From the NCBI GenBank assembly GCA_965204085.1, contig CBDBEE010000002.1, positions 840,913 through 904,912 on the forward strand: 64,000 nt of DNA, in the 5' to 3' direction. A program made the position numbers and the translations under genes. Origin of the DNA: Candidatus Poribacteria bacterium. Its GTDB lineage: Bacteria > Poribacteria > WGA-4E > JAJDTR01. A model generated the notes under the pieces. The model had not been told where the DNA came from and made no database searches. It was given only the letters and a program-made list of their open reading frames with translations. Below are positions 12,645 through 45,587 of this stretch, piece after piece. Positions within the stretch are counted from its first letter, which is position 1. The number at the start of each line of letters is the position of its first letter.

Positions 12645-14012
12645 TCACGCGGCGTTTTTCACAACCCTATCTATCTGAACGACAGTTCTAAGAGTCGATT
12701 CCAGCTGTTCCAAGTTCACCATATTCGGACCGTCGCACAATGCATCGTCGGGACGATTGTGTACCTCCATAAATAGTGCGTCAATGCCCACCGCCGCCGC
12801 GGCTCTTGCGAGATGTCCCACAAATGCCCTCCGTCCTCCGGAATTTTTTCCTAAGCTACCGGGTTGCTGAACGCTGTGGGTGGCGTCGAAAACCACAGGA
12901 TAGCCTGTCTCCTTCAAAACCGGGAGAGCTGTCATGTCAACCGCCAGATTATTATAGCCGAATGAACTTCCCCGCTCGGTCAACAGGATTTGCTCGTTTC
13001 CTGTAGATGCTATCTTCTCGATTGCGTTCGTCATGTCCCACGGCGCCATGAATTGTCCCTTCTTCACCTTGACCGGTTTACCGGTTTTTCCGACCGAAAC
13101 AAGCAAGTCAGTTTGCCGACATAGAAAAGCAGGAATCTGGAGAACGTCGAGAATTGATGCCGCGGGCTCAACTTCGTTGACACAGTGGACATCCGACAAT
13201 ACCGGCACGCCGACTTCTCTTTGAACTTCTTCAAGAGTCCGAAGTCCCTGCTCGAGTCCAGGGCCACGGTAGGAGTCGATTGAAGAGCGGTTCGCTTTGT
13301 CATAGGAAGACTTGAATATGAAACGCACGCCGATTGTATCAGAAATCTTCTTGATGGCTTCTGCCATTTGAAGTGCGTGGTCATGACTTTCGATGACACA
13401 AGGTCCAGCAAACAGTACCAGCGGGAGTACGCCTCCTATCTTAATATCTTGGACCTGAACGATTTTTCCCGTCACCCTTGTTCCTTCGGATGGTACTTCG
13501 TTTTCCGATATAATCAAATCACAGATTTCTCTAACTGCCCCAGCACCACCGGGTTTGGCTGTCACATAATCAGCAACACATTTCACTTGGTCATGGGCAT
13601 CAGCGACAGCGACACGCAGACCAACTGATGAGAGAACGCCGAGATCCCCAACATCATCGCCAATATATAATGTCTCTTCTGCCGATATTGCGCAAGCTCC
13701 AAGAATCTCTTTCAGTACCTTGGGTTTGTCACTTACGCCCATGTATACATCGTCTATAGCCAATTCTCGGGCTCGCCTTCGGAGCGATTCACTGCTTCTT
13801 CCCGATATAATGGCAGTTCTAATTCCGTGCCGCTTAATCTGTTTAAGCCCTTCTCCATCCCGGACATTGAACGCTTTTATCTCCTCTCCTCTGTCAGAGT
13901 AGTAGAGTTGTCCATTTGTCAATACACCGTCAACGTCAGTCACTAAGAGTCGGACTTGCGGGAGTTTCCGTATGAAGTTCATCATAATGCCGTCCGCCTT
14001 TTTGCATGACAT
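12645..14012 (-). CDS. bifunctional fusion: KDO-8-phosphate phosphatase (KdsC, N-terminal) plus 2-dehydro-3-deoxyphosphooctonate aldolase (KdsA, C-terminal)
   Basis: The N-terminal ~170 aa carry the HAD motifs [10 protein letters not shown] and GDDVGD, as in KdsC. The C-terminal ~280 aa match KdsA closely ([37 protein letters not shown]). Confidence 0.85.
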
Positions 14013-17215: not shown

Positions 17216-18181
17216 TTAAACCGCCGGAGGATTATTCTCCGGCGGCTTTGCTGTTAGTTGTTCGTACTTCAACTGTTTCCCGACAGTGTTCTTGGCAACA
17301 TCAGCCATTTGTTTACCGGTATCCTCACGCCTAACGTTATGGCGCCCTTCAAACTCATTGACGTAACGGTGTAGGTGTTTCTTACTCATTTTGTGATACG
17401 TGCCGGTAAAGCCACGTTTCATCAATGACCAGAAACTTTCCATCCCATTGGTATGTGCTTGCTCCCGCACATATTCGCCAATGGAGTGTTTAACCGAGAG
17501 ATGCTTGCGTTGAAGCCCTTTATACGCCTTAGCTTCATCAGTATAAACCGTTGCATCTTCTCCCGTCTTATCTTCTACAAACCCCTGAAGTGTTTTACTG
17601 TCCGTGCTTTCTACCACTTCAGCAGTCACCTTTTTGGTTTCTCTGTTCTTCGCGCCGACAACGGCAACCTTCCCTACAGTACCACGACCGGCGTGTAACT
17701 TCTTACTCGCGTGCTTGTTCTTCTCTTTACCGCCAATATAGGTTTCGTCAACCTCAACTTCGCCGCCAAATGCGTTGTTAGTCGATTCCCACGCCTCCCG
17801 AATCCGGTGTGCCATGTACCAAGCGGATTTCTGGGTGATTCCCAAGTCACGGTGCAGTTTCATTGACGAAACCCCTTTGATTCCAGTGGTCATCAGGTAA
17901 ATGGCAATAGCCCATTTCTGATAGCCAATGTTGCTCCCGTGCATCACGGAGTTCGTTTTCACCGAAAACCGTTTCTTGCAGTCATTACACCTGTGAGGCA
18001 TTGTGGGGTGCTTAGTATGCTCTTTAACGTTCTCACTTTCGCAGTAAGCACAACGGATTCCGTCCTCCCACCTACACGTCTCAAACCACTGTTCCGCCGT
18101 CACGTCATCAGGGAACATTTGAAAAAGTTCCACCAATGTAATACCCTTCCTGTAATGCTGTCCTGGGGCATTCTTAGCCAT
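17216..18181 (-). CDS. IS1595-family transposase (N-terminal zinc ribbon plus DDE domain)
   Basis: Zinc-ribbon motif CAYCES...CNDCKKRF, followed by the ISXO2-like DDE transposase region (YKGL...HSIGEYV...TNGMESFWS). Confidence 0.85.
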   Translation of the reverse strand: MAKNAPGQHYRKGITLVELFQMFPDDVTAEQWFETCRWEDGIRCAYCESENVKEHTKHPTMPHRCNDCKKRFSVKTNSVMHGSNIGYQKWAIAIYLMTTGIKGVSSMKLHRDLGITQKSAWYMAHRIREAWESTNNAFGGEVEVDETYIGGKEKNKHASKKLHAGRGTVGKVAVVGAKNRETKKVTAEVVESTDSKTLQGFVEDKTGEDATVYTDEAKAYKGLQRKHLSVKHSIGEYVREQAHTNGMESFWSLMKRGFTGTYHKMSKKHLHRYVNEFEGRHNVRREDTGKQMADVAKNTVGKQLKYEQLTAKPPENNPPAV

Positions 18182-18606
18182 TTTTCTTTCTCCTTTCTAT
18201 GACATATATTATACTATTTTCGCCCAAAAGTCAACGAAAATCCAGTCATAGCAAGGGTTCAAGGGGTTTCGACGAATTTCGTAATTACCAGAATTAGTAT
18301 TGGCGAAATTAAAAAAGTTCGATATAATTTGAGCGGGGAGCAGTCCACTTACTCCCCGAAAGGAGGTATTCAACTATGAATACCTCAAAAAGTCGGTATC
18401 CCCAAACGGATACCATCCTTGAGCGAAAACGCCTTTCGCGTACCAAGTCTGTTTTAACATGGTACAACGCCCAAACGGGCGAAAAGGTGTTTTGGATGAC
18501 GGTTGAAATAACCGGATTCTTCGCTTAAACCAGTGCGGGCGTTCACCCCAAAATGGACGCCCCACTTCCCACTTTTCTCAAATTACACCGAAATCCAAAA
18601 AAACTG

Positions 18607-19560
18607 CTAAATTAAGAAAATGGTATTAAGGTATATAAGCCCCATAGGTTGAATGCCATCAGTATTCTTTTCATCGGCGCCTCGCCGCCACCATATCTCT
18701 TCAACGGCTAAACGCTCAGAGGCGACTTTGAGCATTAACGAACCCTCAAAAAAACCAGCCATGAACAGCCGGTCTTTGTAAAGCACCGGAGTCGCGACGG
18801 CGAGGATTACTCCTTTCGGCGGGAACGCGTGTACCCAGTACAACTCACCACTTTGCGGGTTTAGACCAACCACGTTATCCCCAGTCCAGCACACCAGTAC
18901 GCGTTTACCGGCTTGGTCAATCATAATGGGTGCAGCATATGAGGCGCGATCATCCAACGCTTTCCACCTTTCTTCTCCGGTGCTCCGATCAAACGCAACA
19001 ATGCAAGCGCCGGGCGACCCACCGACCTGAACTATCAGAAGGTCATTTTCTACGAGGGGAGCACTGGCAATGCCCCAGACGGGCATCTGTATGTTGTATT
19101 CGGCGTTGAGCTCCCTTTTCCAGCGCAGATCGCCGTTGGCGGCATTTAAGCAGTGTAGATGCCCCATCGTTCCGAGCGCATAGGCAAGTCCATCGTGTAC
19201 AGTAACGGAAGCTCGCGGTCCAGCCATATAACCGACATTCCTGTATTCACAATCGTAAGAAGTAGACCAAATCTTGTCGCCAGATTCCGCGTCGAAACAA
19301 TGAACCCGCTCAATCTGCTTGGGAGTTGTGACGCGATCAGTCACGAATACGCGACCGTCCACGACCGTTGGACCACTATAACCACTTGACACGGGGACAC
19401 GCCACCGAACGCTCACCTCGGGCGCATCGAATTTCTCAATGATACCGGTTTCGTTCCATACTCCGTCGCGGTTAACGCCTCGCCACTGAGGCCAATCGTC
19501 CGCAGATGTTGGCGGCGCAATGATTAAAATAACGAACAATCCGAACAGAACAATCTTCAT
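18607..19560 (-). pseudogene. PQQ-like beta-propeller repeat protein, N-terminal part with signal peptide, truncated by IS insertion
   Basis: Signal peptide and PQQ-type repeats. The reading frame runs into the IS right end. Confidence 0.8.
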
Positions 19561-21580: not shown

Positions 21581-24500
21581 TCACTTCCTTATCAGCATCT
21601 TGCGCGTCGCCGTGAACTCGTCTGCTCTCAATGTGTAAAAGTATAAACCACTGGCGACTGGCTCACCATCCTGATTCCTGCCGTCCCAATACGCCGCACG
21701 GCTGCGACTGTGATACATGCCTGCCGGTCGATGTCCAATCTCTATACGGCGAACCGTAACCCCATTCATGTCGTAGACTGTCAGCGTTACCTGTGAGGGC
21801 ACCGCCAACTGATACGGTATCCAGGTTTCAGGATTAAATGGATTCGGGTAGTTGGGGTGCAGCGCGGATTCACCGGGAATGATCAGTGAGGTTAACAGGT
21901 TTTCGAGATTCGCGATGCCCTGTCGAAAGGTGATCGAACCGTCGTCTACCAGCCGTGCCTGTGAAATCCATGTCTCTATCAAATCCCTATCGCGCTCGTT
22001 ATCCACTCGCTTGATCGAAGGCGCGGCGGCTCCTCCAATGCCCTGTGCCACAAGTGTGAGGTCGAAGATGTTGATAATCCCGTCGCCGTTGATGTCCTCC
22101 GGCGAGTTGGGGGGTAGGCGTTTCCCCAACTGCTGTGCGACGAGGATCAGATCCAGAATGTCGACGCCACCGTCACGATTCACATCTCCGGTCAGTAGGC
22201 GTTCCTCCACTGTGAGAAAGATTTCATGAGGCCCCGCCGGGATGTTTTCCCCGGTACTAGAGCCGAACTTGAAGTTACCCAACGCCAAGCGCGTCTCGCC
22301 ATGCGATTTCGCGGTGAACTGTACTTGAAGTACTGTACCGGCACCACGGACTCCGCCGCCAGAGAGTCGTGCAGATTTGAGCCCCGTGATTTTACCCACT
22401 GCGTTGTCAATCCGCCCACTCTGGAAGAAAGTTGTTCCACCGTCCGCCATCAGGAAGTCGCCTTCGCTTACGTCAATCGCTTCAAGAATGGCTGGGTCGA
22501 AGGCGATATCAAACTGCCACCCTGCCAAGTCGGCAACATTTTCTGCACGCACGTCGAAGGTAAAGGTATCGCCGAGGTGGATTGGCGTATCGGAAAATGC
22601 GTAGCCTATGCCGGTTCCCACTGCGTATTCGGTGTCTGATTCAAATCCGAAAAAGGCGTTAGCCCCGCGGTTGACATCGGTGGCAACGGCGACCAACAGC
22701 ACATTCCTCCCCTGTTGCAGCGTCACCGGAAAGAAGTCATTGTAATCCTCTCCTTCGCGACGGTCGTAGTGCCCGCGGAGGAAATCGCCGTTGAGCCAGA
22801 TCTTCAAACCAGCTAGTGCCCCCACGTACATCGTTGTGTCCTGTTCGCGCGGGGAATAGAGAGAAACCGAGCCGTAGATAACGCCGTCCGGGAGACGCTG
22901 TCCCACCATGTCCCAAATGTTGTTCCGCCCCGTCGGCGGGAGCTTATCGGAAGTCCATACCTCATCGCCGACCGAATTCCCCTCGGTTGCACCATGCGTA
23001 GCGACCGCTTCCTCTGTCACTATGCCCTGGCTCGCTGCCGCAAGGAAGTCCATGTTCAGATGTTTTCCCATCGGGAAATAGACCCAAAGCCAAGGACCTT
23101 CTATCTTGGAACCTCCTATAGGGAACCCCGGATTGTTGTGCCATTCGATTTTTGTGTTTGCACGCAACCCATCCAAGGGCGAAAAGTCGGAAATATTGTT
23201 GTTGCCCACCCCCAACCATATCAGGTTTGTTAGCCCTGCCAGTGCCGAAATATTCGATATCCGGTTTTCGGACACATTCAGGCGCTCAAGCCCGGTTAAA
23301 CTCGCAAGCGGCGATATGTCCGATATTCCGTTCGAGACGAGATATAGCCTTTTTAGCTTGGGCAGGTTCATCAAAGGCGAAAGGTCTGACAAATCCGCAC
23401 CGCAAATATCTATGCTTTCCATGTTTGTTAATCCGGCTAGTGGCGACAAATCGGAGAAGCGGTTGCCCCAAGTACCAATGCCTTTCAAGTTATGTAATCC
23501 CGCAAGCGGGGATATATCAGATACGCTGTTTCCGGTAAATCCCAATACCTCCAGATTGATCAAGCCAGCTACAGGAGAAAGGTTGGAAATCAGATTACCT
23601 AATAATTCTAACCGAATCAGATTGGTTAATCCCGCAAGTGGTGACAGGTCGGAAATCTTATTCTCTCTGACATTTAATCTATCCAGATTGATTAATCCCG
23701 CAAGTGGTGACAGATCTGAGATCGCATTACCTCCAAGCTGTAACTCTCTCAACCTGGTTAATCCCGCTATCGGAGAAAGGTCGGAAATCTGTGTGCGAAA
23801 AGCGTCCAGCCTACTGAGATTTCTCAATCCATTCAGCGGAGATAGATCGGATACAGGGTTGTTGCTAATCCTGAGTTCATACATTTCAATTAAGCCTGCT
23901 ATAGGTGAAAGGTCAGAAATCTGATTGTCCGTGACAAGCAATTCTCTCAGATTGGTAGCAAATTGCAGTCCAGTCAAATCGCGGATATCCCTGTTACTCG
24001 GCTTAATTTTACTCAATGTTTTCATCTCCTCCGCGGTAATGGGGGTATTGGCGCTTTTGCCAAGCGCTTCCGCAACGGCGGCACGCAAGTTGGAATCAGG
24101 GAAATGAACCTGCCCACCAGGCAACACATCGGGCTGTGTTATGACCGGAGGCTCTCCGACTAACTGCGGGTAGTCCAGCGCAGAAATTATATCTCGAAAA
24201 CTAGATGTCCAAGTATCTCGCTTCACACTCCCGTTTTCATTGTCTAGCGCCAGCAACCCAACGTTTTGCAGTCCGGTGTTCTCACGTATCCTTTCGAGAA
24301 AGGTTTCGGTCTCCAACCCGACCACAGCAGCAGCGTATGCCACGTCTATCGGCGCCTGAAACGCTTCATGAAAACGTGAAACCGGCTCAATACCGTCAAA
24401 CGTACCGCCCGTGGCTTCAAGCGCTACTCTGTATGTTTCCATGTCTTCACCCACACGGGCATCCATGTCTGACTGTTCCACATAGAGTCGCAGCGCCTGC

Positions 24501-25810
24501 GCTTTGTTATAGGGTGGACTGGGGTTGCTCTCAATTGCGGCACGCACCTCGTCTTCAAAGGTCTTCATGCCCTCCGTATGGCAACCGATGCAGGAGATGC
24601 CGTTGCGCACCGTGGGGTCGCTGGTAGCGGGATTGGAAACGATGTTTATCGGGGCTTCATCCAACCGGAAACCGGACGCATTGGCAAGGTAGTATCCTTG
24701 CAACCCGTTTGGCAGATTGAAGATAGCTTCTCCCCCATCGTGCGTGAAGTTAAGCGGGTGGGTAAAGATGTTTTGTGTACCCACACTCCCTGCAAAGTCG
24801 TAGCTCTTCCAATAGGCTCCATAGCGTGAGGTGTGTCGTTCCACGACACGGTTGTGGTTTGAGACACCCGAGTTGTTGAATCCCGCACGCCAGACACGGA
24901 CCCCTGGTGCGTTAACCAGATTGCCTGCAACATCAACCTCCAGCCGGGTTTCCAAGTCCCTGTCCGTCAACGGCAGCGACAGTAGTTCGTGATATAGTGG
25001 CGGAGTAGATGCGGTTGCAATAAACCAGTCGATATGCACTGACGGAACATCGGTCTTCATCTGTGTTTGCAAGCGCCCCAGTTGTGACCGGAGTGTAGTG
25101 TCGGTTGGAGCGTCAAACGCGATGTGGTAGGGATAGGCTTCCTCTATCTTTGTCCAGCCGTCATTCCGATCCCACTCGTAGTGACGGAGGTCGATGTAGA
25201 AGATAGTGACTTGCGGGTCGATGGGTTGTGGGTTGGTGATTCCGCTTCCCCATGAGAGGCTATTGACCAGTTTGTTGAGCGCTTTGCGGTATTCAGCAAG
25301 TATCTCCGCTGTTTCGCCAGCATTATAGAGGTGGGTGAGAGTGAAGTAACGGGCAAAAGCGCGGTCAAACGACGAGAGCGAGCTGAGGTGTGTCTCAATG
25401 CTAGTGAGCACTTCGCTGGGGGGAATGAAACGATGATCTGGCGCACTAGTTGCCGCCCAATCGGGTGCGCCAGCTAGAATCCAGCGTCGAACCGTCTCAA
25501 TGGATTGGGCGGGCAATTGAGGCAGTCCAAACGGCATCTGCGCGCCGTTTTCGGTGGGACCGAGGAGGCGTTTGTACAATTCGGATGCATCTGGATTTCC
25601 AAGTACAACAGTGCCACCATCAATGAGTTCGCTGTGCTCCATGAGGAGCGTTTCTCGAAAGGCGCCGTCGGGGCCATGGCAGTTCAGGCAACTCGCTTCA
25701 AAGATGGCGTAGGTGTCTTGGGCTAACTGCGATTGGGCAGATAGATTTTCAGAACCTGCGCTGAGAGACAGTAGGCATATCAAAGCAAAAATGAAATGAC
25801 GTTTATACAT
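21581..25810 (-). CDS. giant secreted multidomain protein: N-terminal cytochrome-c-like CxxCH region, about 14 leucine-rich repeats, dockerin-like repeats, and a T9SS/FlgD-type C-terminal sorting domain
   Basis: Signal peptide. CLNCHG motif. 22-residue LRR units (LxxLxLxxNxISDLSPLAGL). Repeats DVNRDGGVDILDL and DINGDGIINIFDL. C-terminus ...GLYFYTLRADEF...K. Confidence 0.8.
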   Translation of the reverse strand: MYKRHFIFALICLLSLSAGSENLSAQSQLAQDTYAIFEASCLNCHGPDGAFRETLLMEHSELIDGGTVVLGNPDASELYKRLLGPTENGAQMPFGLPQLPAQSIETVRRWILAGAPDWAATSAPDHRFIPPSEVLTSIETHLSSLSSFDRAFARYFTLTHLYNAGETAEILAEYRKALNKLVNSLSWGSGITNPQPIDPQVTIFYIDLRHYEWDRNDGWTKIEEAYPYHIAFDAPTDTTLRSQLGRLQTQMKTDVPSVHIDWFIATASTPPLYHELLSLPLTDRDLETRLEVDVAGNLVNAPGVRVWRAGFNNSGVSNHNRVVERHTSRYGAYWKSYDFAGSVGTQNIFTHPLNFTHDGGEAIFNLPNGLQGYYLANASGFRLDEAPINIVSNPATSDPTVRNGISCIGCHTEGMKTFEDEVRAAIESNPSPPYNKAQALRLYVEQSDMDARVGEDMETYRVALEATGGTFDGIEPVSRFHEAFQAPIDVAYAAAVVGLETETFLERIRENTGLQNVGLLALDNENGSVKRDTWTSSFRDIISALDYPQLVGEPPVITQPDVLPGGQVHFPDSNLRAAVAEALGKSANTPITAEEMKTLSKIKPSNRDIRDLTGLQFATNLRELLVTDNQISDLSPIAGLIEMYELRISNNPVSDLSPLNGLRNLSRLDAFRTQISDLSPIAGLTRLRELQLGGNAISDLSPLAGLINLDRLNVRENKISDLSPLAGLTNLIRLELLGNLISNLSPVAGLINLEVLGFTGNSVSDISPLAGLHNLKGIGTWGNRFSDLSPLAGLTNMESIDICGADLSDLSPLMNLPKLKRLYLVSNGISDISPLASLTGLERLNVSENRISNISALAGLTNLIWLGVGNNNISDFSPLDGLRANTKIEWHNNPGFPIGGSKIEGPWLWVYFPMGKHLNMDFLAAASQGIVTEEAVATHGATEGNSVGDEVWTSDKLPPTGRNNIWDMVGQRLPDGVIYGSVSLYSPREQDTTMYVGALAGLKIWLNGDFLRGHYDRREGEDYNDFFPVTLQQGRNVLLVAVATDVNRGANAFFGFESDTEYAVGTGIGYAFSDTPIHLGDTFTFDVRAENVADLAGWQFDIAFDPAILEAIDVSEGDFLMADGGTTFFQSGRIDNAVGKITGLKSARLSGGGVRGAGTVLQVQFTAKSHGETRLALGNFKFGSSTGENIPAGPHEIFLTVEERLLTGDVNRDGGVDILDLILVAQQLGKRLPPNSPEDINGDGIINIFDLTLVAQGIGGAAAPSIKRVDNERDRDLIETWISQARLVDDGSITFRQGIANLENLLTSLIIPGESALHPNYPNPFNPETWIPYQLAVPSQVTLTVYDMNGVTVRRIEIGHRPAGMYHSRSRAAYWDGRNQDGEPVASGLYFYTLRADEFTATRKMLIRK

Positions 25811-26252: not shown

Positions 26253-27053
26253 CTAGACGCACTTGCAGGTCAAGCCGCCGTCAACAACAAGTTCGGTACC
26301 CGTGATATATTTCGCTTCATCCGACGCCAGAAATAGTGCGGCATACGCCACGTCCCAGGCATCGCCCATTTTTCCGGTAGGACAAAGGTTGTTGCGAATC
26401 TCAATCATCTTCTCGACATCACCATCGGCGTATGCATCTGCAAGCCCCTCGACTACCATCGGCGTGTTCATGAAACCGGGAAGAATAGCGTTGGCGCGGA
26501 TATTCTTTTTCGCGTACTGTATGGCAATGCTCTTGGTTATCTGGTTTATGCCTCCCTTGGTTGCGCTGTAAGAAACGTAGGGCACTCCCAGCCAACGTAT
26601 TGATGCAATAGACGAGATGTTGACAACTGCGCCTCCACCCTGCATCTCCATGTGCGGCAGCGCATATTTGCAGGTCAGAAACACACTCTTGAGATTGACA
26701 TCATTGACATGATTCCAACTCTCCTCACTTGCTTCGACGCAGCCTCCAACCTCAACGATTCCGACATTGTTGTGGAGTATGTCTATGCGACCGTACGTTT
26801 CAAGGCAACTATCCACCATACCTTCTACATCGGAAGCCTTGGAGACATCCGTTTCACGGACAGCACATTTTCCATCTTCCGCATCAATGACAGCCTTCGT
26901 TTCTTCCACAGCAGCACGATTGATATCAACGGCAAAAACTTTGGCGCCTTCGCGCGCGAAGAGCACGGCAGTAGCTTTTCCGTTACCCCAACCCGGACCA
27001 ATCGAGCCGGCACCGGTGACAATTGCAACTTTGTCTTTTAAGCGTCCTCCCAT
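26253..27053 (-). CDS. SDR family oxidoreductase
   Basis: TGAGSIG Rossmann motif and YSATK catalytic motif. The start is taken at MGGRLKDK to avoid overlapping the sulfatase gene. Confidence 0.85.
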   Translation of the reverse strand: MGGRLKDKVAIVTGAGSIGPGWGNGKATAVLFAREGAKVFAVDINRAAVEETKAVIDAEDGKCAVRETDVSKASDVEGMVDSCLETYGRIDILHNNVGIVEVGGCVEASEESWNHVNDVNLKSVFLTCKYALPHMEMQGGGAVVNISSIASIRWLGVPYVSYSATKGGINQITKSIAIQYAKKNIRANAILPGFMNTPMVVEGLADAYADGDVEKMIEIRNNLCPTGKMGDAWDVAYAALFLASDEAKYITGTELVVDGGLTCKCV

Positions 27054-27076
27054 TTCCCTCCCTCGGTAGTTACTAT

Positions 27077-28483
27077 CTATCCAGACGACATCGGAAAACC
27101 GGCGGGGCGTGTATAAGGCAGATACTTTGTCTGTCCCCACGACATTCCATCTTGGCTCAAGCCATCCCGCCGCGGATCTACGAACCGGGAAAACCAGTCA
27201 TCCAACATTCCGTCCAGTTCCTTGATTCGGTCGCTTTGCGCCTCATCTTCTGCCAGATTCTGCCGCTCATCGGGATCGGACACAAGGTGGTACAGCTCGT
27301 GGGGGCCGTGACTGTGTCGGTAGGTGTATTTCCACTCTTGAGTGCGAACCATCCGCACGGGGCCATATTCGTCGTAGACCACTACCTGTTCGGCGCCATC
27401 AGATGGTCTGCCTTCCAATGCTGGTAGAAAGCTGCTGCCAGGTAGATTTCGATCTTCCGGTACGGGCAGGTCGAGGTATTCCAAGAGTGTCGGCATGAAG
27501 TCGTAGGAGCTAATCATCGAGTCGTTGACATCCCCTAGAGGGATGCGACCGGGGTGGCTGAAGATAGCGGGAACTTTAATGGAATTCTCGTACATGTTGC
27601 GCGGCATCGTCGCGTTCCCTTTTCCCCAAAATCCGTGATGTCCACACGAAAAGCCGTTATCGCTTAGGAACACAACAAGCGTATTATCGCGTAAACCGAG
27701 TTCCTCTAGTCTGTCGAGGATACGACCGATGTTTTGGTCCATAGCAGTCACTGCGGCAAAGTAACCCTTCAGCGCCTCTCGGTTGCCGAGCGCATCGTCC
27801 GTAAAGACATTACTGCCTACCCCAGCCCATGGATGACGCGGCTCTTGCGGACAGGTCTCGAACAGGCAATCGTCATAAGAGTCGACGATAGATTGAGGGT
27901 GTTCATTCACCCACGGATCGTGGGGGGCAGTGTAATGAACACTCAAGTAGAACGGATGACCGTGATCGGCATATCTGTCCAGTATCTCCAGTCCCTCGTC
28001 GGTAATAGCATCCGTTAGGTACCTCGGCTCGTTTAGGAGTTGACCGTTTTTCACCATGGGCGCATCGTGGTAGTGCCCGCCACCCAACTGATGAGCATAC
28101 CAATCGGTGAAACCGTGTTGCGGTATCTGGCTGTCACCCAAATGCCACTTGCCGGATAGACCACAAGTCCAGCCGTGTCGCGCCATGATGTCCGTGTACC
28201 CTACCTCACCCTCTAAATAACGGATGGCGTCAGGACCGACATTTCCATCCCGAATCCAGTCGTGCACGCCGTGTTGAGACGGAATACGCCCTGTCAACAG
28301 GGTCGCGCGACTCGCCGAGCAGACAGGAGATGCAACGAAAAAATTGCTGAACCTGATCCCCGAATTGGCTAAGCGGTCGAGATTGGGCGTGCGTATTTCA
28401 GGATTGCCGCAGCAACCCGCCGCCCATGATCCCTGGTCGTCGCTCAGAATAAAGAGAACGTTCGTTTTGTCTGCGTTACTCAA
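27077..28483 (-). CDS. arylsulfatase (formylglycine-dependent sulfatase family)
   Basis: Sulfatase signature SPVCSASRATLLTGR (C-x-A-S-R). 468 aa. Confidence 0.9.
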   Translation of the reverse strand: MSNADKTNVLFILSDDQGSWAAGCCGNPEIRTPNLDRLANSGIRFSNFFVASPVCSASRATLLTGRIPSQHGVHDWIRDGNVGPDAIRYLEGEVGYTDIMARHGWTCGLSGKWHLGDSQIPQHGFTDWYAHQLGGGHYHDAPMVKNGQLLNEPRYLTDAITDEGLEILDRYADHGHPFYLSVHYTAPHDPWVNEHPQSIVDSYDDCLFETCPQEPRHPWAGVGSNVFTDDALGNREALKGYFAAVTAMDQNIGRILDRLEELGLRDNTLVVFLSDNGFSCGHHGFWGKGNATMPRNMYENSIKVPAIFSHPGRIPLGDVNDSMISSYDFMPTLLEYLDLPVPEDRNLPGSSFLPALEGRPSDGAEQVVVYDEYGPVRMVRTQEWKYTYRHSHGPHELYHLVSDPDERQNLAEDEAQSDRIKELDGMLDDWFSRFVDPRRDGLSQDGMSWGQTKYLPYTRPAGFPMSSG

Positions 28484-37612: not shown

Positions 37613-40600
37613 ATGAAAAAATCCCTGTTTGTCATGTTTATCCATTTATTCATTTCTGTCCTGTTTTTGCAGAACAGTTTCGCGCAGGAATATACACGAT
37701 GGGGGCTGCCGGAGGGCGCTACGGCGCGCCTGGGAAAAGGTGGAATAAATGAAATCGCGTTTTCGCCGGACGGGTCACAGTTTGCAGTGGCAAGTAGTAT
37801 CGGCATCTGGCTCTATGACCCGAACACCGGCACTGAAGTCACCCTCCTCACCGGGCATACGTCCTCTGTCAATTGTGTAGCCTTCAGTCCAGATGGGAAG
37901 ACTATCGCCAGTGGGAGTTCCGACGATACCATCCGTTTGTGGGATGCTACCACTGGAGTTCATAGGCAATCACTTACCGTCCATAACTCTATTGTCAATA
38001 GCCTAGCCTTCAGCCCGGATGGGAAAACTATTGCCAGTGGGAATGGTTCCATCACAGGTGAAGATAACACAATCCGTATGTGGGACGCCGTTACTGGAAA
38101 ACTTAAGCAGACAATCTCCGGGCACGCAGACATAGTTACTAGTGTCGTCTTTAGTTCCGATGGCAGTGCACTTGCAAGTCAGACTTTCGGTTTCGACAAA
38201 CAGATTCATATCTGGAATGCTTACACAGCCGACCTCAAGTGGAGGTCAAGCTTGCCTGAGTATTCGGTCCGTAGCATCGCTATAAGCCCCGATTGGTACA
38301 CAGTTGCAAGCGGGAGTAGTGACGGAACAATCCGTCTGTGGGATGTTGTCACGGGAGCACATAAGACGACGCTTGCCGGGCATACGGATCCGGTCAATAT
38401 CATTGTCTATAGCCCGGATGGACTTACAATCGCCAGTGGCGGTTTCGACGGTACAATCAGGCTGTGGAATGTCGCCACGGGAGCACAAAAGGCGACGCTT
38501 GCCGGGCATACGAGTTGGATTGACCACATCGCCTTCAGCCCGGACAGTAATACGATTGCTAGTGGAAGTGACGACAGAACCATGCGGCTGTGGGATGTTA
38601 CCACTGGAGCACAAAAATGGATCGTCCACGAGCATACGGATTCGATAAACAGCATCGCCTATAACCCGGATGGACGTACAATCGCCAGTGGTGGTTTCGA
38701 CGGCACCATCCGGTTATGGAAAGTTGCTATGGGCGAGGTCAAGCGAAGTTTCGGGTTTGGGTACGGAGTCGCTCTGAGCCCAGACGGGCGCACAATTGCA
38801 AGTCAAGTTATTGACGAGATTTTTCTGTGGGACGCAAGCACAGGAGCACAAAAGCAAGTTCTCACCGGGCATACAGATCGCGTTCAAAGCATCGCATTCA
38901 GCACGGATGGGCGCACAATCGCCAGCGGGAGTCAGGATAAAACCATCCGGCTATGGGATGTCGCCACGGGAGTACAAAAGCGAGTTCTCACCGGGCATAC
39001 AGATCACGTTCAAAGTATCGCATTCAGTCCCGATGGGAATATGCTTGCCAGTGGGAGTTGGGACCATACCATCCGCCTATGGAATGTCCTGACGGGCAGA
39101 AACAAGCACACGCTCACAGGTCATACAGCTTTCGTCAACTGTGTCGCATTCAGTCCCGATGGGATCGTGCTTGCCAGTGGGAGTGACGACATTCGCCTAT
39201 GGGAGGCCGACACGGGGGCGCACAAGCGAACGCTCACCGGGACGAGATCGGTCGGGAGCCTAGCTTTCAGCCCGGATGGGGATACAATCGCTAGTGGAGG
39301 TTCGGGCGGTACTATCCAACTGTGGGATGCTCTTACATGTACTAAGAAGCGCACATTCACTGGTCATACATATCGGGTCAACAGTGTGGTTTTCAGTCCA
39401 GATGGAAACACAATTGCCAGCGGGAGTGAAGACGGGACAATTCTGATGTGGAACCCGCTTCCTGATCCAAGTGTAATCGTTACGGAGCGCGGGTTTGACA
39501 ACTATAGTCTGGGGCCCGCTCAGCAGGGACTGCCTGATGGTGCTAAGGCGCGGCTTGGTAAGGGTTCGGCATCTAAGATTGCATATTCTCCAGATGGAAC
39601 ACGTCTTGCTGTCGCGAGTAGCATTGGGATTTGGCTCTATGATGTCCACAGCGAGAGCGAAGTCGACCTTCTGACCGGGCATACACATCGTGTCTCTAGC
39701 GTAGCGTTCAGCCCGGATGGGAGCACAATCGCTAGCAGCAGTAATGGGATTCGTGACAATACCATCCGTCTATGGGATGCTGTCACGGGGGAACACAAGC
39801 TGACACTAGTCGGGCATACAGATGCGGTCATTAGTGTTGCTTTCAACCCGGACGGTGGTACGATTGCCAGTGGAAGTGATGACAATACCATTAGGATGTG
39901 GGACACTATCACAGGCGTACACAAGCTGACGCTCACGGGGCATTCTAGCAACGTTAGCAGCGTAACGTTCAGCCCAGATGGAAGGACCATTGCCAGTGGA
40001 AGTGATGACAAGACCATTAGAATGTGGGACACTATCACAGGCGCACACAAGTTGAGACTCACCGGTCATACGGATTGGGTGACTAGTGTCCTCTTCAGCC
40101 TAGACGGTAGCACAATTATCAGCGCCAGTAGAGACAAGACAATCCGTCTGTGGGATGCTACCTCAGGCGCACACAAGCTAACACTAGCCGGGCATACAGA
40201 CCCAGTCATTTGTGTCGCCTTCAACCCGGATGGGAGTATGATCGCCAGTGGGGGTTTGGACAAGACCCTCCGACTGTGGGATGCTACCTCAGGCGCACAC
40301 AAGTTGACACTCACCGGCCATACGGATTGGGTGACTAGTGTCCTCTTCAGCCCAGACGGTAGCACAATTATCAGCGCCAGTAGAGACAGGACAATCCGTC
40401 TGTGGGATCTTCTCAAAGGCACCGATAAGATATTCGCTCGGGACAAGATGAAGGCCAATAGTGTTACCTTCAGCCCAGATGGGAGAACACTTGCCACTGG
40501 AAATCACGACAATACAGTCCGATTGTGGGATACCGTCACAGGCGGACACAAACAGACGCTCACCTGGCACACCGATGAGGTCACTAGTCTCGCCTATAGC

Positions 40601-41299
40601 CCAGACGGCGACACGCTTGCCAGTGGTAGTAAGGATTATACCATCTGTCTGTGGGATGCCGTCACAGGCAAACATAAGCGGACACTTACTGGACATACGT
40701 TTAATGTAAATAGCATTGCGTTTAGCCCGGATGGCAGGATTCTGGCTAGCACGAGTAATGATAATACTATCTATTTGTGGGACGTTCCGACAGGTACACT
40801 CAAGCACACTCTTATTGGGCATACGAATTGGGTTACTGCCGTTGCGTTCAGCCCAGATGAGAAAACACTTGCCAGTGCGAGCTACGACACCACCGTGCGG
40901 CTGTGGGACTCCGTCATGGGCAAATTCAAGCGGACATTCACCGGTTATAATCTTGCAGTCCGGAGTGTTGCCTTCAGTCCAGATGGGAGAACACTTGCCA
41001 CTGGAAGTGGCGACAATGTCCGATTGTGCGACGCCATTACGGGCATGCACAAGCGGATCCTCGCCGGACATACGAATTGGATCGATAGTGTCGCGTACAG
41101 CCCTGATGGGCATACGCTCGCCAGTGGCAGTTGGGACCATACCATCCGACTATGGGACACCATCACAGGTACTCACAAGCAGACCCTCGCCGGACACACA
41201 GATTCGGTTGTGGGGCTCGCATTCAGCCCGGATGGAACCACGCTCGCCAGTTGTAGTGAGGATGGTACGATTCTATTGTGGGATGTGACCGCCGAATAA
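37613..41299 (+). CDS. WD40 repeat protein (about 28 repeats, two homologous halves), secreted
   Basis: Signal peptide. Reiterated GHTxxVxSVAFSPDGxTIASGSxDxTIRLWD units. The N-terminal block GLPEGATARLGKGGINEIAFSPDG reappears at about residue 630. Confidence 0.9.
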   Translation: MKKSLFVMFIHLFISVLFLQNSFAQEYTRWGLPEGATARLGKGGINEIAFSPDGSQFAVASSIGIWLYDPNTGTEVTLLTGHTSSVNCVAFSPDGKTIASGSSDDTIRLWDATTGVHRQSLTVHNSIVNSLAFSPDGKTIASGNGSITGEDNTIRMWDAVTGKLKQTISGHADIVTSVVFSSDGSALASQTFGFDKQIHIWNAYTADLKWRSSLPEYSVRSIAISPDWYTVASGSSDGTIRLWDVVTGAHKTTLAGHTDPVNIIVYSPDGLTIASGGFDGTIRLWNVATGAQKATLAGHTSWIDHIAFSPDSNTIASGSDDRTMRLWDVTTGAQKWIVHEHTDSINSIAYNPDGRTIASGGFDGTIRLWKVAMGEVKRSFGFGYGVALSPDGRTIASQVIDEIFLWDASTGAQKQVLTGHTDRVQSIAFSTDGRTIASGSQDKTIRLWDVATGVQKRVLTGHTDHVQSIAFSPDGNMLASGSWDHTIRLWNVLTGRNKHTLTGHTAFVNCVAFSPDGIVLASGSDDIRLWEADTGAHKRTLTGTRSVGSLAFSPDGDTIASGGSGGTIQLWDALTCTKKRTFTGHTYRVNSVVFSPDGNTIASGSEDGTILMWNPLPDPSVIVTERGFDNYSLGPAQQGLPDGAKARLGKGSASKIAYSPDGTRLAVASSIGIWLYDVHSESEVDLLTGHTHRVSSVAFSPDGSTIASSSNGIRDNTIRLWDAVTGEHKLTLVGHTDAVISVAFNPDGGTIASGSDDNTIRMWDTITGVHKLTLTGHSSNVSSVTFSPDGRTIASGSDDKTIRMWDTITGAHKLRLTGHTDWVTSVLFSLDGSTIISASRDKTIRLWDATSGAHKLTLAGHTDPVICVAFNPDGSMIASGGLDKTLRLWDATSGAHKLTLTGHTDWVTSVLFSPDGSTIISASRDRTIRLWDLLKGTDKIFARDKMKANSVTFSPDGRTLATGNHDNTVRLWDTVTGGHKQTLTWHTDEVTSLAYSPDGDTLASGSKDYTICLWDAVTGKHKRTLTGHTFNVNSIAFSPDGRILASTSNDNTIYLWDVPTGTLKHTLIGHTNWVTAVAFSPDEKTLASASYDTTVRLWDSVMGKFKRTFTGYNLAVRSVAFSPDGRTLATGSGDNVRLCDAITGMHKRILAGHTNWIDSVAYSPDGHTLASGSWDHTIRLWDTITGTHKQTLAGHTDSVVGLAFSPDGTTLASCSEDGTILLWDVTAE

Positions 41300-42410: not shown

Positions 42411-42505
42411 GAAACCGAGTTTTTGGTTCGCGTGCGCTAAATCATAGGTAAATTTGGCTGATTTCCGTAAATTTTGAGTTTCCACGTTGGAAAAAACTCG
42501 GTTTC
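42411..42505. repeat. long hairpin with conserved arms gaaaccgagttttt / aaaaactcggtttc and a variable loop of about 65 nt, copy 1
   Basis: Inverted repeat seen directly in the sequence. The same arms recur at 45604-45635 and 56638-56731. Confidence 0.6.
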
Positions 42506-42626
42506 TGCGCTTCGTCGGACAAACGTGGCAACTTGGGTTAACTATCATCACATCCCCGACTCGTTTTCTACTGAAATCAAGCAAAAATTCGTTGAATTTC
42601 ATCACACGGCTACGGAGGAATCTACC

Positions 42627-45587
42627 TTGACAACAGAAATCGTATGCACCACCATATTCATGGCGACATTTCTCGCTACCAACAACATAACCTGGAGCGA
42701 GGATAAGGAGATTGTCGGTGAACGCCCCTACGAAATGGAATGGGCAAACCGCACCGAAGACACCTACCCACCTCTAATTGATTTTGAAGACTTGGCAGGA
42801 TGGCGCGTTGAGACCTCTAATGCGACCGCAACTTTCCAACGCTCGCGAGAACAGCAACTCTGGGGGAAATACGTTGCCAAACTCACCTACCGCGCGACGG
42901 AAGCCAATCCCGAAATCCGCATCAGTCCTCCAGCCCCCATACCGATTCAAAACGGCTTTGAGGTGGTCTCCTGCTGGATCTTCGGCAAAGAACGCCATCG
43001 CCCGAAGATTTCCGCGCTGTTCAAAACTTCCGATGGACGCGAGATGCTGTTTTCCATGCGCGCGGATTGGGATAACTGGGGATGGTTTCAATCTTACTAC
43101 CGATTGTCTCCCGATCAAATTGATCTCGTCGCGGACGGTTCCACTTTCACCGGGTTCATCATTCGTGATTCCAACGAACCGGAAGATCGCCTGATCTGCT
43201 TTGACAATCTAGCCGTCTTCACTGAAGACTTCAAACCGCTGTATTTCAAGCCGCGTCCTCGACGCGGCATCCCGATGTTCCCCGGACAAGGAACGGGGAC
43301 GAACACCGGTCCCGGCAAACTCCCGTTTCCAACGCGGAAGGAAACCATTTTGCCCGACAACCTGACAGACGAATTCACGACACACATACAAGCCGAGGGC
43401 GGTGGTTTTACCTTTCGCTATGAGGGCGTGGACGGCACTCTGATTTACCGGCTTGAGCCTCGTACCGGCACGTTGAGTGACATCAGCGCCGAGTGGGTGG
43501 GGCTAGGCGGTCCGATTCAGCCGTGCGTCGGCGGTGGCGTGTATCTGGCGACCAAGGCGGATTCCCCCTCTCCACCTGAGTCCACCGAGCATTTAGGCAC
43601 GGACCTCCAAGATGAGAAGGTCGTCTCGCGATGGCGGCTAAAGGCTAAAGGAGTGACGCAGGACGTAATTTATGTATATCGACTCTGGAACAAATCGCTT
43701 GCAATTGACACGCTTGCCCCCGGTGGGGACGTTGCCGAAGTAAGATACGGAAAGGCTGTCGGCGTGGAGAATCCGCGCCTGGTCGACAATCCGTTTTACA
43801 CCTACAACGGCTACATTCCCGACGGACGTCCGGCGGTTGTCGTCGCCGGTTCGCAAGACGCGCCGCTGTTCCTGACCGGAAACACCGACTGGTACCTATC
43901 CAATGCCTCAATGCTGCTGCCCTCGCCTTCCCTGACGCCCGATGGAGTTGTCTACAACACCGGCACGCGGTATATTCCCAAAACCAACGGCGCGCGGGTT
44001 GATTGTTACGAGCGATTTTTCATCACCGTTTCCCCGCGTTACGAGGAGATGTTGCCCACTATTCCGAATCCAAAGTCCCCGTGGCTGAGTCATGTGGGCA
44101 CCCGGCTCTGGAAAGCGCATCAGTCCGAAAATCCGCGAGCAGACGGGATACGCTTTTTCAGAAAACTGCACCGGTACGGGATAACCGAAATGACAATCAC
44201 CGACCATGAAGGCGGATGGCGCGACGGAGGTGAAAGTTTTACGTTTCGAACCCGCGGCGCACCTGAAAAGGGGGGCGACGAAGGATGGGCGGAATATTCC
44301 CGCGTTCTACGGGACGACATCGGTTACATTTACGGTCCTTACACGCAGTTCCTTGATATCGCAGCCGTCAATGAATACTGGGACACCGACATCATCACGC
44401 GAACCCCCGACAATCGGATGCACGGGGGCTGGCGCCGTTGTTACCGAGCCAAGCCCGCCCGATCCCCGGAATATTGCGAGTTGCTGTCGCCAATCATCAA
44501 AGAAAATTTCGGATTCAACGCGAGCTACCTAGACGTGCATACACTCCACACCCTGGATTTTGTAGATTACGACTACCGTGTGCCCGGCGCCGCGACCTTT
44601 GCTGCAACCTTCTACGCCTACGGAGAAACCATGCTGATTCAAAAGCAAATATACAACGGACCGGTATTCTCGGAGGGTGGTCACCAATTCATCTTTAGCG
44701 GCCTGATTGATGGGAACTACGCTCAGGACCGTGCGGGCAAAGTGAAGTTGGCTTGGGGACCGTGGTTGGTGGATTTTGAACTTCGGAAAACTCACGATTT
44801 GTGTGCCAATATCGCAATGGGAGAGTACGGCATGTTCTACCGGGGAGAGGAGCCGGAACCAAGTGGTCGCTCGGGTGAAGATCCGCGTAGTGACCGGCAC
44901 ATTGCCGCGACCATCGCGTTCGGTCACGTCGGCATCCTCCAATACGAAGACCCGCTTCCGCGCATGATGCGAATCTACTACATGCTACAGCAATTGCAGA
45001 GCCGCTATGCGATGTCTAGCGTGGCGGAAATACGGTATGCGGACGCGGACGGAAATCTCTTGGATACCACTGCCGCCGTGGCATCCGGCGCCTACAAACG
45101 CTCACAGATCGTGACCCGTTACCGGAGCGGGTGCATCACCGTGGTAAACGGCAATGCAAATGACGAATACATGGCGGTAAACGCCTACGGAAGGCGCGTA
45201 ACACTGCCTCCGAACGGTTATGCTGGCTGGACCGAAGATGGAGCGATTGAGATTTTTAGCGGCGAGATTCACGGTCACCGCGCTGATTACGCAGTGACAC
45301 CCGAATATATCTTCATTGATGGGCGTAGTAAATCAACGCGATTCCCCAAAGCGGAAGGAAATGGAGTAGGAATCTGCCGCATTCGTCCGGATTGGAAATA
45401 CGAGGTAATTCTGTTTGACGGCTCCGATTGCGGTTTCGCGATCGAAGCAAATCAAGCCGTGGCGCTAGACGAAGAAAGAAATGAGATTGGAACGACAACA
45501 CTGCGCGAGTCTGACCGTTTCATCTACGTAGAGCAAGTGCCGGGCGCCTTCAGCTACTTGCTCAGCACCGACAACTCCTCAAAATAA
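42627..45587 (+). CDS. large hypothetical protein of unknown function (about 986 aa)
   Basis: A long ORF with no recognisable motif. The likely TTG start at 42627 is preceded by GGAGG, since the annotated upstream portion overlaps the hairpin element. The N-terminus is hydrophobic. Confidence 0.5.
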   Translation: MTTEIVCTTIFMATFLATNNITWSEDKEIVGERPYEMEWANRTEDTYPPLIDFEDLAGWRVETSNATATFQRSREQQLWGKYVAKLTYRATEANPEIRISPPAPIPIQNGFEVVSCWIFGKERHRPKISALFKTSDGREMLFSMRADWDNWGWFQSYYRLSPDQIDLVADGSTFTGFIIRDSNEPEDRLICFDNLAVFTEDFKPLYFKPRPRRGIPMFPGQGTGTNTGPGKLPFPTRKETILPDNLTDEFTTHIQAEGGGFTFRYEGVDGTLIYRLEPRTGTLSDISAEWVGLGGPIQPCVGGGVYLATKADSPSPPESTEHLGTDLQDEKVVSRWRLKAKGVTQDVIYVYRLWNKSLAIDTLAPGGDVAEVRYGKAVGVENPRLVDNPFYTYNGYIPDGRPAVVVAGSQDAPLFLTGNTDWYLSNASMLLPSPSLTPDGVVYNTGTRYIPKTNGARVDCYERFFITVSPRYEEMLPTIPNPKSPWLSHVGTRLWKAHQSENPRADGIRFFRKLHRYGITEMTITDHEGGWRDGGESFTFRTRGAPEKGGDEGWAEYSRVLRDDIGYIYGPYTQFLDIAAVNEYWDTDIITRTPDNRMHGGWRRCYRAKPARSPEYCELLSPIIKENFGFNASYLDVHTLHTLDFVDYDYRVPGAATFAATFYAYGETMLIQKQIYNGPVFSEGGHQFIFSGLIDGNYAQDRAGKVKLAWGPWLVDFELRKTHDLCANIAMGEYGMFYRGEEPEPSGRSGEDPRSDRHIAATIAFGHVGILQYEDPLPRMMRIYYMLQQLQSRYAMSSVAEIRYADADGNLLDTTAAVASGAYKRSQIVTRYRSGCITVVNGNANDEYMAVNAYGRRVTLPPNGYAGWTEDGAIEIFSGEIHGHRADYAVTPEYIFIDGRSKSTRFPKAEGNGVGICRIRPDWKYEVILFDGSDCGFAIEANQAVALDEERNEIGTTTLRESDRFIYVEQVPGAFSYLLSTDNSSK

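Follow-up and report, generated by a model that had tools for sequence, protein, structure and literature searches.

Why would a sponge-associated bacterium export a single polypeptide that joins c-type heme motifs to leucine-rich repeats (LRRs), a cohesin, a dockerin and a sorting-type C-terminal domain (CTD), and is such a protein a one-off fusion or a member of a family? The question is raised by a gene at positions 21581..25810 (minus strand) of a 64,000-nucleotide stretch of Candidatus Poribacteria DNA (GenBank assembly GCA_965204085.1, contig CBDBEE010000002.1, positions 840,913 to 904,912), which was analysed at its full length and is here called the window. The encoded protein of 1409 amino acids (aa) had been presented in a preliminary description, made from the sequence alone, as a secreted mosaic. 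The gene proved to be one copy of a large family of exported proteins of about 1400 aa in the sponge-associated Candidatus Poribacteria, with a six-part architecture after the signal peptide: a diheme module, an internalin-type LRR block, a beta jelly-roll, a cohesin, a dockerin and a CTD resembling the type A sorting domain of type IX secretion systems (T9SS). "Mosaic", in the sense of a one-off fusion, is therefore misplaced, as the arrangement is the fixed, canonical architecture of a multi-copy family.

A multi-copy family with a fixed architecture

The open reading frame (ORF) begins with ATG, ends with a stop codon at 21581-21583 and is uninterrupted over 4.2 kb. About 8 nt 5' of the ATG lies a purine-rich, GGGG-containing stretch resembling a Shine-Dalgarno sequence. 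A look-up of the exact protein sequence gave no match; thousands of homologues of each half and a syntenic orthologue place the ORF far beyond chance, and the gene is real and intact. Domains were assigned by Pfam and NCBIfam scans and by segment-wise sequence searches of solved structures in the PDB, which together gave significant matches for every named domain. These assignments agreed largely with the domain order first proposed, from which only a second CXXCH motif and the cohesin had been missing, and the multiple domain matches, together with the signal-peptide features, bore out a secreted multidomain protein. By inspection, aa 1-25 (25736..25810; all features of the protein lie on the minus strand) form a putative Sec-type signal peptide (MYKRH / FIFALICLLSLSAG / SENLSA|Q), with a basic n-region, a hydrophobic core of 14 residues (Kyte-Doolittle mean 2.4) and an AXA-like LSA|Q site. 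The same inspection found neither a lipobox nor a second transmembrane-like or hydrophobic segment in the 1409-aa protein. Of the five cysteines in the mature protein, four fall within two CXXCH motifs.

The family was surveyed with one genome per species, which gave at least 577 confirmed matches; the best 78 loci were classified, and all 78 were from Poribacteria. Copies are dispersed along the chromosomes, with at least seven on OZ242335.1 and at least five each on OZ244829.1 and OY282444.1. All six parts were found in a single stop-to-stop ORF of 1270-1540 aa at 59 of the 78 loci, and the other 19 comprised nine that extend past the fetched sequence, nine that are interrupted and one that is shorter. 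The N-terminal 555 residues retrieved more than 2000 proteins, the top 120 with 72-90% identity and, where named, from Candidatus Poribacteria, while the C-terminal 529 residues retrieved more than 7800. One full-length homologue (P0121, 1379 aa) has an identical set of Pfam domains. A syntenic orthologue was found at locus L001, where the gene order is sulfatase, SDR, family gene, epimerase, Ldh_2 and PQQ. The surroundings of paralogues differ, the contexts at loci L002 and L003 being unlike one another, and the window holds neither a second family copy nor a related CTD.

Variants of this plan were also encountered. At one locus (L003:1540-13713) three family copies stand head-to-tail on one contig, copies elsewhere being dispersed. 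A short form of about 780-800 aa (L014:2941-5334; P0058, P0108) has the heme module joined directly to the dockerin and CTD, and lacks the LRRs, the beta domain and the cohesin. Conversely, P0346 and P0382 carry a cohesin-dockerin-FlgD_ig tail on unrelated N-terminal domains (BatD-like and others), so that the tail looks like a general poribacterial cassette.

In the databases, many family proteins represent just one half, N-terminal or C-terminal, and both kinds of half occur together on individual contigs. A genuine two-gene system was rejected as the explanation, since the junctions show a duplication, a TAA and clustered indels, and since 59 of the 78 loci are single ORFs. In the L001 orthologue (L001:7100-7160), an 11-bp tandem duplication (acagacctgaa twice) inside an LRR shifts the frame; at L002:7840-7900 there is a single in-frame TAA in the first LRR; and at L003:2150-7850 clustered indels occur in the three-copy tandem array, on a contig labelled 12x. 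The split copies are decayed or mis-sequenced single genes.

Constant and variable parts among paralogues

Amino acid identity and the ratio of non-synonymous to synonymous substitution rates (dN/dS) were computed between paralogues within the same genome. The heme module was under the strongest purifying selection, with identities of 82-93% in its cytochrome c domain (dN/dS 0.07-0.14) and 85-91% in its core (dN/dS 0.09-0.15). The LRR block (53-63%, dN/dS 0.26-0.33) and the beta domain (60-64%, dN/dS 0.20-0.32) were the most divergent parts. Towards the C-terminus, identities rose again to 69-87% in the cohesin (dN/dS 0.15-0.25), 77-88% in the dockerin (dN/dS 0.13-0.19, with the linker) and 76-94% in the CTD (dN/dS 0.08-0.18). 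Head and tail are thus the constant parts of the family, and the LRR and beta domains in the middle are its diversifying part. The synonymous rate (dS) of the heme module was about half that of the LRRs; gene conversion or noisy alignment of the repeats could be the cause.

The probable diheme module

The heme module occupies aa 26-555 and opens with a PSCyt1-like class-I c-type cytochrome domain (aa 26-120; 25451..25735), in which the first heme motif, C41-L-N-C-H45, lies at 25676-25690 and M92-P93 provides the putative axial methionine. The single sequence scored 21.1 bits against PSCyt1 (PF07635; cutoff 22), while 35 of 45 family members and relatives matched the model, with a best E-value of 2.9e-17. 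When the family profile was compared to PDB sequences, it matched FoxE (7e-11), Kuenenia c-552 (4e-7) and then CcoP and c6, with the CxxCH and MP motifs aligned; these cytochrome matches were confined to positions of about 29-125. The PSCyt-type heme domain of the preliminary description was thereby supported.

The "long middle region" that had been described as following it hid a second heme motif. Within the remaining core of about 430 aa (aa 121-555; 24146..25450), which carries about 30 invariant residues, C407-I-G-C-H411 (24578-24592) is invariant across the family; the two CXXCH motifs stand about 360 residues apart and are both retained down to about 40% identity. All four cysteines of the module fall in these motifs. 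In a set of 107 sequences reaching down to 37% identity, C41, C44, H45, M92, P93, C407, C410 and H411 were all invariant, as were about 25 further polar and aromatic residues. The second motif makes this a diheme module rather than a cytochrome tag, and from the conserved motifs we infer that it binds two hemes covalently. The core was modelled by AlphaFold2 (AF2) with high confidence (predicted local distance difference test, pLDDT, 93.2; predicted template modelling score 0.83), and it was covered by no Pfam or NCBIfam model. A faint match to the fatty-acid cis/trans isomerase family (CTI, PF06934; aa 91-162 to profile positions 87-153, E = 0.015-0.026, 13.5-14.4 bits, cutoff 25) was rejected, as it spans 65-70 residues of a profile of about 690 and overlaps the end of the cytochrome c domain.

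The module is not confined to Poribacteria. An exhaustive search found it in 5663 clusters (50% identity) at E ≤ 1e-3, and in 1579 at E ≤ 1e-30. Named carriers include Planctomycetes (Gemmataceae), Acidobacteriota (Blastocatellia) and Chthonomonadaceae, where the proteins are annotated as "hypothetical", "c-type cytochrome domain-containing" or "mono/diheme cytochrome c family". In other phyla it is fused to TPR, WD40, HEAT, FGE-sulfatase, Ser/Thr kinase, NPCBM and FHA domains, which suggests a periplasmic or extracellular role as sensor or enzyme. Individual examples (P0223, P0460, P0211 and P0265) place the module after a Ser/Thr kinase and an FGE-sulfatase domain, or after TPR, WD40, HEAT or NPCBM domains. 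Three loci from other phyla with stand-alone module genes shared no conserved neighbour, and a PSCyt2/PSD1 and DUF1501 pair near one of them was judged coincidental. The module is a widespread, unnamed and probably diheme domain, regularly found in combination with domains for interaction or sensing.

What the module has in common with the PSCyt1 proteins of Planctomycetes and with FoxE (a diheme Fe(II) oxidoreductase; 5mab) is a class-I cytochrome c domain at the N-terminus, in which MP lies downstream of CxxCH. In contrast to these proteins, its cytochrome domain is followed by a 430-aa core with a CXXCH of its own, and not by PSCyt2/PSD1 (DUF1549/DUF1553) or a second FoxE-type domain. Bacterial diheme cytochrome c peroxidases and MauG combine a His/Met electron-transfer heme with a second heme in a conserved pocket, and are exported and matured in the periplasm. 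No sequence or fold similarity between these enzymes and the poribacterial module was detected, and the likeness might be one of functional analogy, not of membership.

Leucine-rich repeats and jelly-roll-like domain

The diheme module is followed by a linker and an internalin-type N-terminal LRR cap (aa 556-612; 23975..24145), recognised from an alignment to the Listeria internalin InlA that starts at InlA residue 11 and from Int_EF-hand and LRR_EndoS matches at aa 569-627. The LRR block itself (aa 613-898; 23117..23974; LRR_4, 141 bits) comprises 13 repeats of the pattern LxxLxxLxLxxNxISDLSPLAG in an exact 22-residue register, the last of them degenerate. In the PDB sequence search, aa 567-866 aligned to InlA residues 11-310 with an E-value of 1.9e-91. 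About 14 internalin-like repeats of 22 residues had been proposed; their type and length held, while the count is 12-13. An ORF of 272 aa on the opposite strand inside the block (23106..23924, plus strand) had been dismissed as a periodicity artefact, and rightly so: it mirrors the LRR period, with a self-identity of 0.32 at lag 22 and no more than 0.11 at any other lag, and lies within a strongly supported coding region. It is not a gene.

The resemblance is to the class-1 internalins of Listeria (InlA, InlH, InlB), which likewise have an N-terminal cap followed by 22-residue LRRs, are exported, and form multi-paralogue families in a host-associated bacterium. The differences are as clear. 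The NCBIfam internalin models scored 219.6-235 bits where their cutoffs lie at 1050-1600, a C-terminal LPXTG or GW anchor is lacking (the sole LPxTG is internal, at aa 957), the poribacterium is diderm, and the LRR block sits between the diheme module and the cohesin-dockerin-CTD tail.

Beyond the LRRs, the preliminary description had noted a beta-rich region. The segment is indeed rich in beta structure, but consists of a jelly-roll-like domain and then a genuine cohesin that had been missed. The first of these (aa 899-1075; 22586..23116) was all-beta in an AF2 model of the C-terminal half (pLDDT 71.6 overall, about 85-95 in the beta domain and cohesin). Foldseek matched it to the jelly-roll and immunoglobulin (Ig)-like N-termini of glycoside hydrolase family 2 (GH2) enzymes (9bey, 3e-7), and the isolated domain gave only a faint Pfam match, to BetaGal_ABD2 (E = 0.13). 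The domain belongs to no recognised family, and the model suggests a galactose-binding-like beta-sandwich of the jelly-roll type.

Cohesin and dockerin

The cohesin (aa ~1076-1200; 22211..22585) scored 36.1 bits against PF00963 (cutoff 24.1) and matched cohesins among PDB sequences (5g5d, 3.6e-4). A Foldseek search with the AF2 model matched cellulosomal and non-cellulosomal cohesins, the best fold matches being 2xdh (TM-score 0.67) and 2jh2 (TM-score 0.70-0.74). It is directly followed by a type-I dockerin (aa ~1201-1262; 22025..22210), which scored 32.2 bits against Dockerin_1 (PF00404; cutoff 22.9), aligned to 2y3n_B across both repeats (E = 5.9e-6) and also matched 2jnk in the PDB sequence search. 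Its two F-hand calcium loops are canonical 12-residue loops, DVNRDGGVDILD at aa 1209-1220 and DINGDGIINIFD at aa 1239-1250, each followed by a helix; they conform to the pattern D-x-N-x-D-G-x-x-x-x-x-D, and the loop residues were invariant in 61 relatives. The repeats described earlier as dockerin-like and calcium-binding hence belong to a true type-I dockerin and not to a generic EF-hand. Between dockerin and CTD lies a helical linker (aa 1263-1318; 21857..22024), for which AF2 predicted two helices with low to medium confidence and no family match was found.

The presence of a cohesin brings self-association into the reading of the protein, and we infer from the domain identities that cohesins and dockerins may pair among paralogues. 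Single cohesins and single calcium-binding dockerins outside the cellulosome are also known from Archaeoglobus fulgidus (2xdh) and from the toxin complexes of Clostridium perfringens (2jh2, 2ozn/2jnk), and 2xdh and 2jh2 are the very structures to which the poribacterial cohesin fold is closest. The poribacterial modules differ from these in being adjacent in one chain, ahead of a T9SS-like CTD, and in belonging to a large paralogous family.

The C-terminal domain

The CTD (aa 1319-1409; 21584..21856) runs from NYPNPFNPETWIPYQL to the terminal GLYFYTLRADEFTATRKMLIRK, an ending that is present as first claimed. FlgD_ig was the better-fitting model, with 35.3 bits for the whole protein and 41.2 bits for the isolated domain (cutoff 27); the NCBIfam model TIGR04183 ("T9SS type A sorting domain") was also passed, with 28.8 bits (cutoff 23). 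Among PDB sequences the CTD matched the FlgD structures 7eh9 and 7bhq at about 2e-3. The signature NYPNPFNP...GLYFY...RKMLIRK, whose motifs are typical of type A CTDs, was invariant in relatives. On the two points that the preliminary description had singled out as decisive, the CTD matches FlgD_ig and the T9SS model TIGR04183, and the dockerin is not an ordinary EF-hand segment.

Proteins exported through the T9SS of Bacteroidota as type A cargo resemble the 1409-aa protein in combining a Sec signal with a C-terminal beta-sandwich-type domain of about 90 residues that passes TIGR04183, and in ending with G-hydrophobic-Y-F ... K/R-hydrophobic-hydrophobic-hydrophobic-K. They differ in that the poribacterial phylum is reported to lack the Por structural genes, the Por tail model failed, and FlgD_ig fits better. 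Kamke et al. (2014, PMC3909097) noted TIGR04183 domains on numerous eukaryote-like proteins of Poribacteria, as would be expected for a shared sorting signal.

Proposed function and alternative explanations

The reading that we favour, and to which we would give an even chance of being right, is that of variable recognition by LRR and beta domains mounted on a redox head and a tail for anchoring and assembly, both of them constant, with the paralogues together forming a surface repertoire that associates with itself through cohesin and dockerin. The protein would be exported by the Sec route through its predicted signal peptide. In the periplasm, two c-type hemes would be attached covalently at the conserved C41xxCH and C407xxCH; the first, in the class-I His/Met cytochrome c domain, could relay electrons, and the second would sit in the large conserved core, which looks more like an enzyme or sensor than a simple carrier. 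The CTD, judging by domain homology, would take the protein, once folded, to the outer membrane or through it and keep it at the cell surface. In line with this, the 3-deoxy-D-manno-octulosonate 8-phosphate (KDO-8-P) synthase encoded in the window implies an outer membrane with lipopolysaccharide (LPS). At the surface, the LRR and beta domains, whose variability is evident among the paralogues, would serve in ligand binding, with host or matrix proteins and glycans as the probable partners, and the cohesin and calcium-dependent dockerin might pair with those of sister paralogues to build surface assemblies.

Several observations weigh against this reading. The core has no characterised relative: a Foldseek search against the PDB returned nothing better than E = 2.1 and the family profile matched no PDB sequence over this part, which makes "enzyme or sensor" a conjecture. 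No domain-wide dN/dS reached the values above 1 that would demonstrate diversifying selection on the LRRs, and misalignment of the repeats may inflate their divergence. Cohesin and dockerin could pair within one chain or with other partners. With nine of the 78 loci and many metagenomic copies interrupted, some copies are decaying. Regarding the CTD, Por_Secre_tail (PF18962) remained under its cutoff of 27 (18.3 bits for the whole protein, 26.9 for the isolated domain), and the structure prediction that had been proposed as a check gave an unreliable AF2 model (pLDDT <45). Kamke et al. (2014, PMC3909097) reported finding no structural genes for Por secretion in poribacterial single-cell genomes, and none of the secretion components SprA, PorV, PorU, PorZ and PorK/L/M/N was present among the scanned ORFs of the window. 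The earlier assignment as a Por/T9SS or FlgD-Ig sorting tail consequently stands as far as FlgD_ig and TIGR04183 are concerned, while Por_Secre_tail was missed and sorting by a T9SS is a matter of domain homology.

The last points bear directly on the alternative that the protein is true T9SS cargo, which PorV/SprA-type machinery would recognise through its CTD and a PorU-type sortase would cleave, with anionic LPS as the point of attachment, and which would serve as a eukaryote-like adhesin towards sponge cells. The TIGR04183 and FlgD_ig scores, the NYPNPFNP and GLYFY...RKMLIRK motifs and the internalin-like LRRs all fit this, as does the N-terminal Sec signal, recognised by inspection and one of the traits of type A cargo. 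The reported absence of Por structural genes from poribacterial genomes (PMC3909097), the placement of Poribacteria among candidate phyla outside the Bacteroidota (NCBI taxonomy) and the Por_Secre_tail score speak against it, and it leaves the diheme module, the most conserved part, unexplained. We regard T9SS cargo status, an argument from homology, as unlikely; a eukaryote-like adhesion role, as put forward in the preliminary description, would be plausible.

If the heme module is taken as the centre of the protein, as its being the most constrained part would invite, the protein might instead be a soluble redox enzyme (peroxidase- or oxidase-like), periplasmic or released, with LRR and beta domains that recruit substrates or partners and a C-terminal beta-sandwich that is simply a structural Ig-like domain. 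The modules of other phyla lack the CTD and are joined to domains usual in periplasmic or sensor proteins (TPR, WD40, HEAT, FGE-sulfatase or kinase), the FlgD_ig score exceeds those of the Por tail models, and no T9SS is reported. However, thousands of other poribacterial proteins, their N-termini unrelated, share the cohesin-dockerin-CTD cassette, as a cassette for targeting or assembly would lead one to expect, and the CTD occupies a strictly C-terminal position, with 76-94% conservation between paralogues. We consider this reading rather improbable. A bolder version of the favoured reading, and a doubtful one at present, is that the core of about 430 aa would be a new heme-enzyme or sensor fold coupled to the diversifying LRR and beta domains and to a cohesin-dockerin lattice. 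This would amount to a "targeted redox" surface repertoire acting on host or matrix molecules, for instance in handling peroxide and reactive oxygen species or in oxidative modification at the sponge interface, with CTD-dependent export in place of a canonical T9SS.

A cellulosome-like complex, in which the protein would be an adaptor scaffoldin linking carbohydrate-active enzymes (CAZymes) via cohesin and dockerin and the jelly-roll would be a carbohydrate-binding module (CBM), is improbable; in its favour are the genuine cohesin and dockerin, the likeness of the beta domain to GH2 sugar-binding jelly-rolls and the sulfatase and GHL10 genes nearby. Unlike in the cellulosome, there is a single cohesin and no multi-cohesin scaffoldin; the protein contains no catalytic CAZyme domain, and a Pfam scan of the whole sequence matched no glycoside hydrolase or CBM family. 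Paralogues differ in their gene neighbourhoods (L002 versus L003), the closest cohesin folds (2xdh, 2jh2) are non-cellulosomal, and the dominant partner domains are LRR and heme domains, not glycoside hydrolases. That the gene is an assembly chimera or a decaying, functionless pseudogene, which the many half-length database relatives, the 11-bp duplication at L001 and the in-frame TAA at L002 might suggest, is effectively refuted by the uninterrupted window copy, by the 59 of 78 independent loci that keep the whole architecture in one ORF and by dN/dS values well below 1 in all domains.

Genomic surroundings

Around the gene lie metabolic genes together with those for an IS1595 transposase and a WD40 protein, and sulfatase and GHL10 genes are nearby. 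Cytochrome-maturation genes were not found among the window ORFs that were scanned. A single ORF at 12645-14012 (minus strand) encodes KdsC (KDO-8-P phosphatase) fused to KdsA (KDO-8-P synthase), which indicates LPS synthesis and an outer membrane. At 17216-19560 (minus strand), the IS1595-family transposase gene adjoins an ORF for a PQQ-like beta-propeller of 317 aa, compared to 429 aa in L001, which was probably truncated by the insertion sequence. The SDR ORF (26253-27140, minus strand), listed as starting from GTG, shares 64 nt with the end of the sulfatase ORF (27077-28483, minus strand); since the SDR has 266 aa in L001, its true start is probably further downstream. On the plus strand, 37613-41299 encodes a 1228-aa protein of about 25 WD40 repeats, a eukaryote-like repeat type typical of Poribacteria, in which no CTD related to that of the 1409-aa protein was detected, and 42474-45587 is a 1037-aa ORF with no Pfam or NCBIfam match.

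Significance

No description of the family was found in the literature searched for this architecture. Each domain type of the tail was already known, and LRR proteins and the TIGR04183 tail had been noted in Poribacteria in 2014; new relative to that literature are the fixed architecture, which includes a diheme head and a cohesin-dockerin pair, the organisation of the paralogues into constant and variable parts, and the heme core. Users of the databases should note that frameshifts and stops within or close to the repeats have left many entries of this family as half-genes. In sponge symbionts, eukaryote-like proteins, including those with LRRs, are the leading candidates for mediating symbiont-host recognition, and they are mostly reported just as numbers of domains. 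Here, the internalin-like LRRs of Poribacteria are shown to be part of a defined, multi-copy family whose diheme head, under strong constraint, and cohesin-dockerin-CTD tail are both constant. Three questions are thereby made concrete: what role is played by a widespread, unnamed diheme domain found in more than 5600 clusters, how a T9SS-type sorting domain is used in a phylum reported to lack the T9SS, and whether non-cellulosomal cohesin-dockerin pairs may build a lattice on the cell surface.

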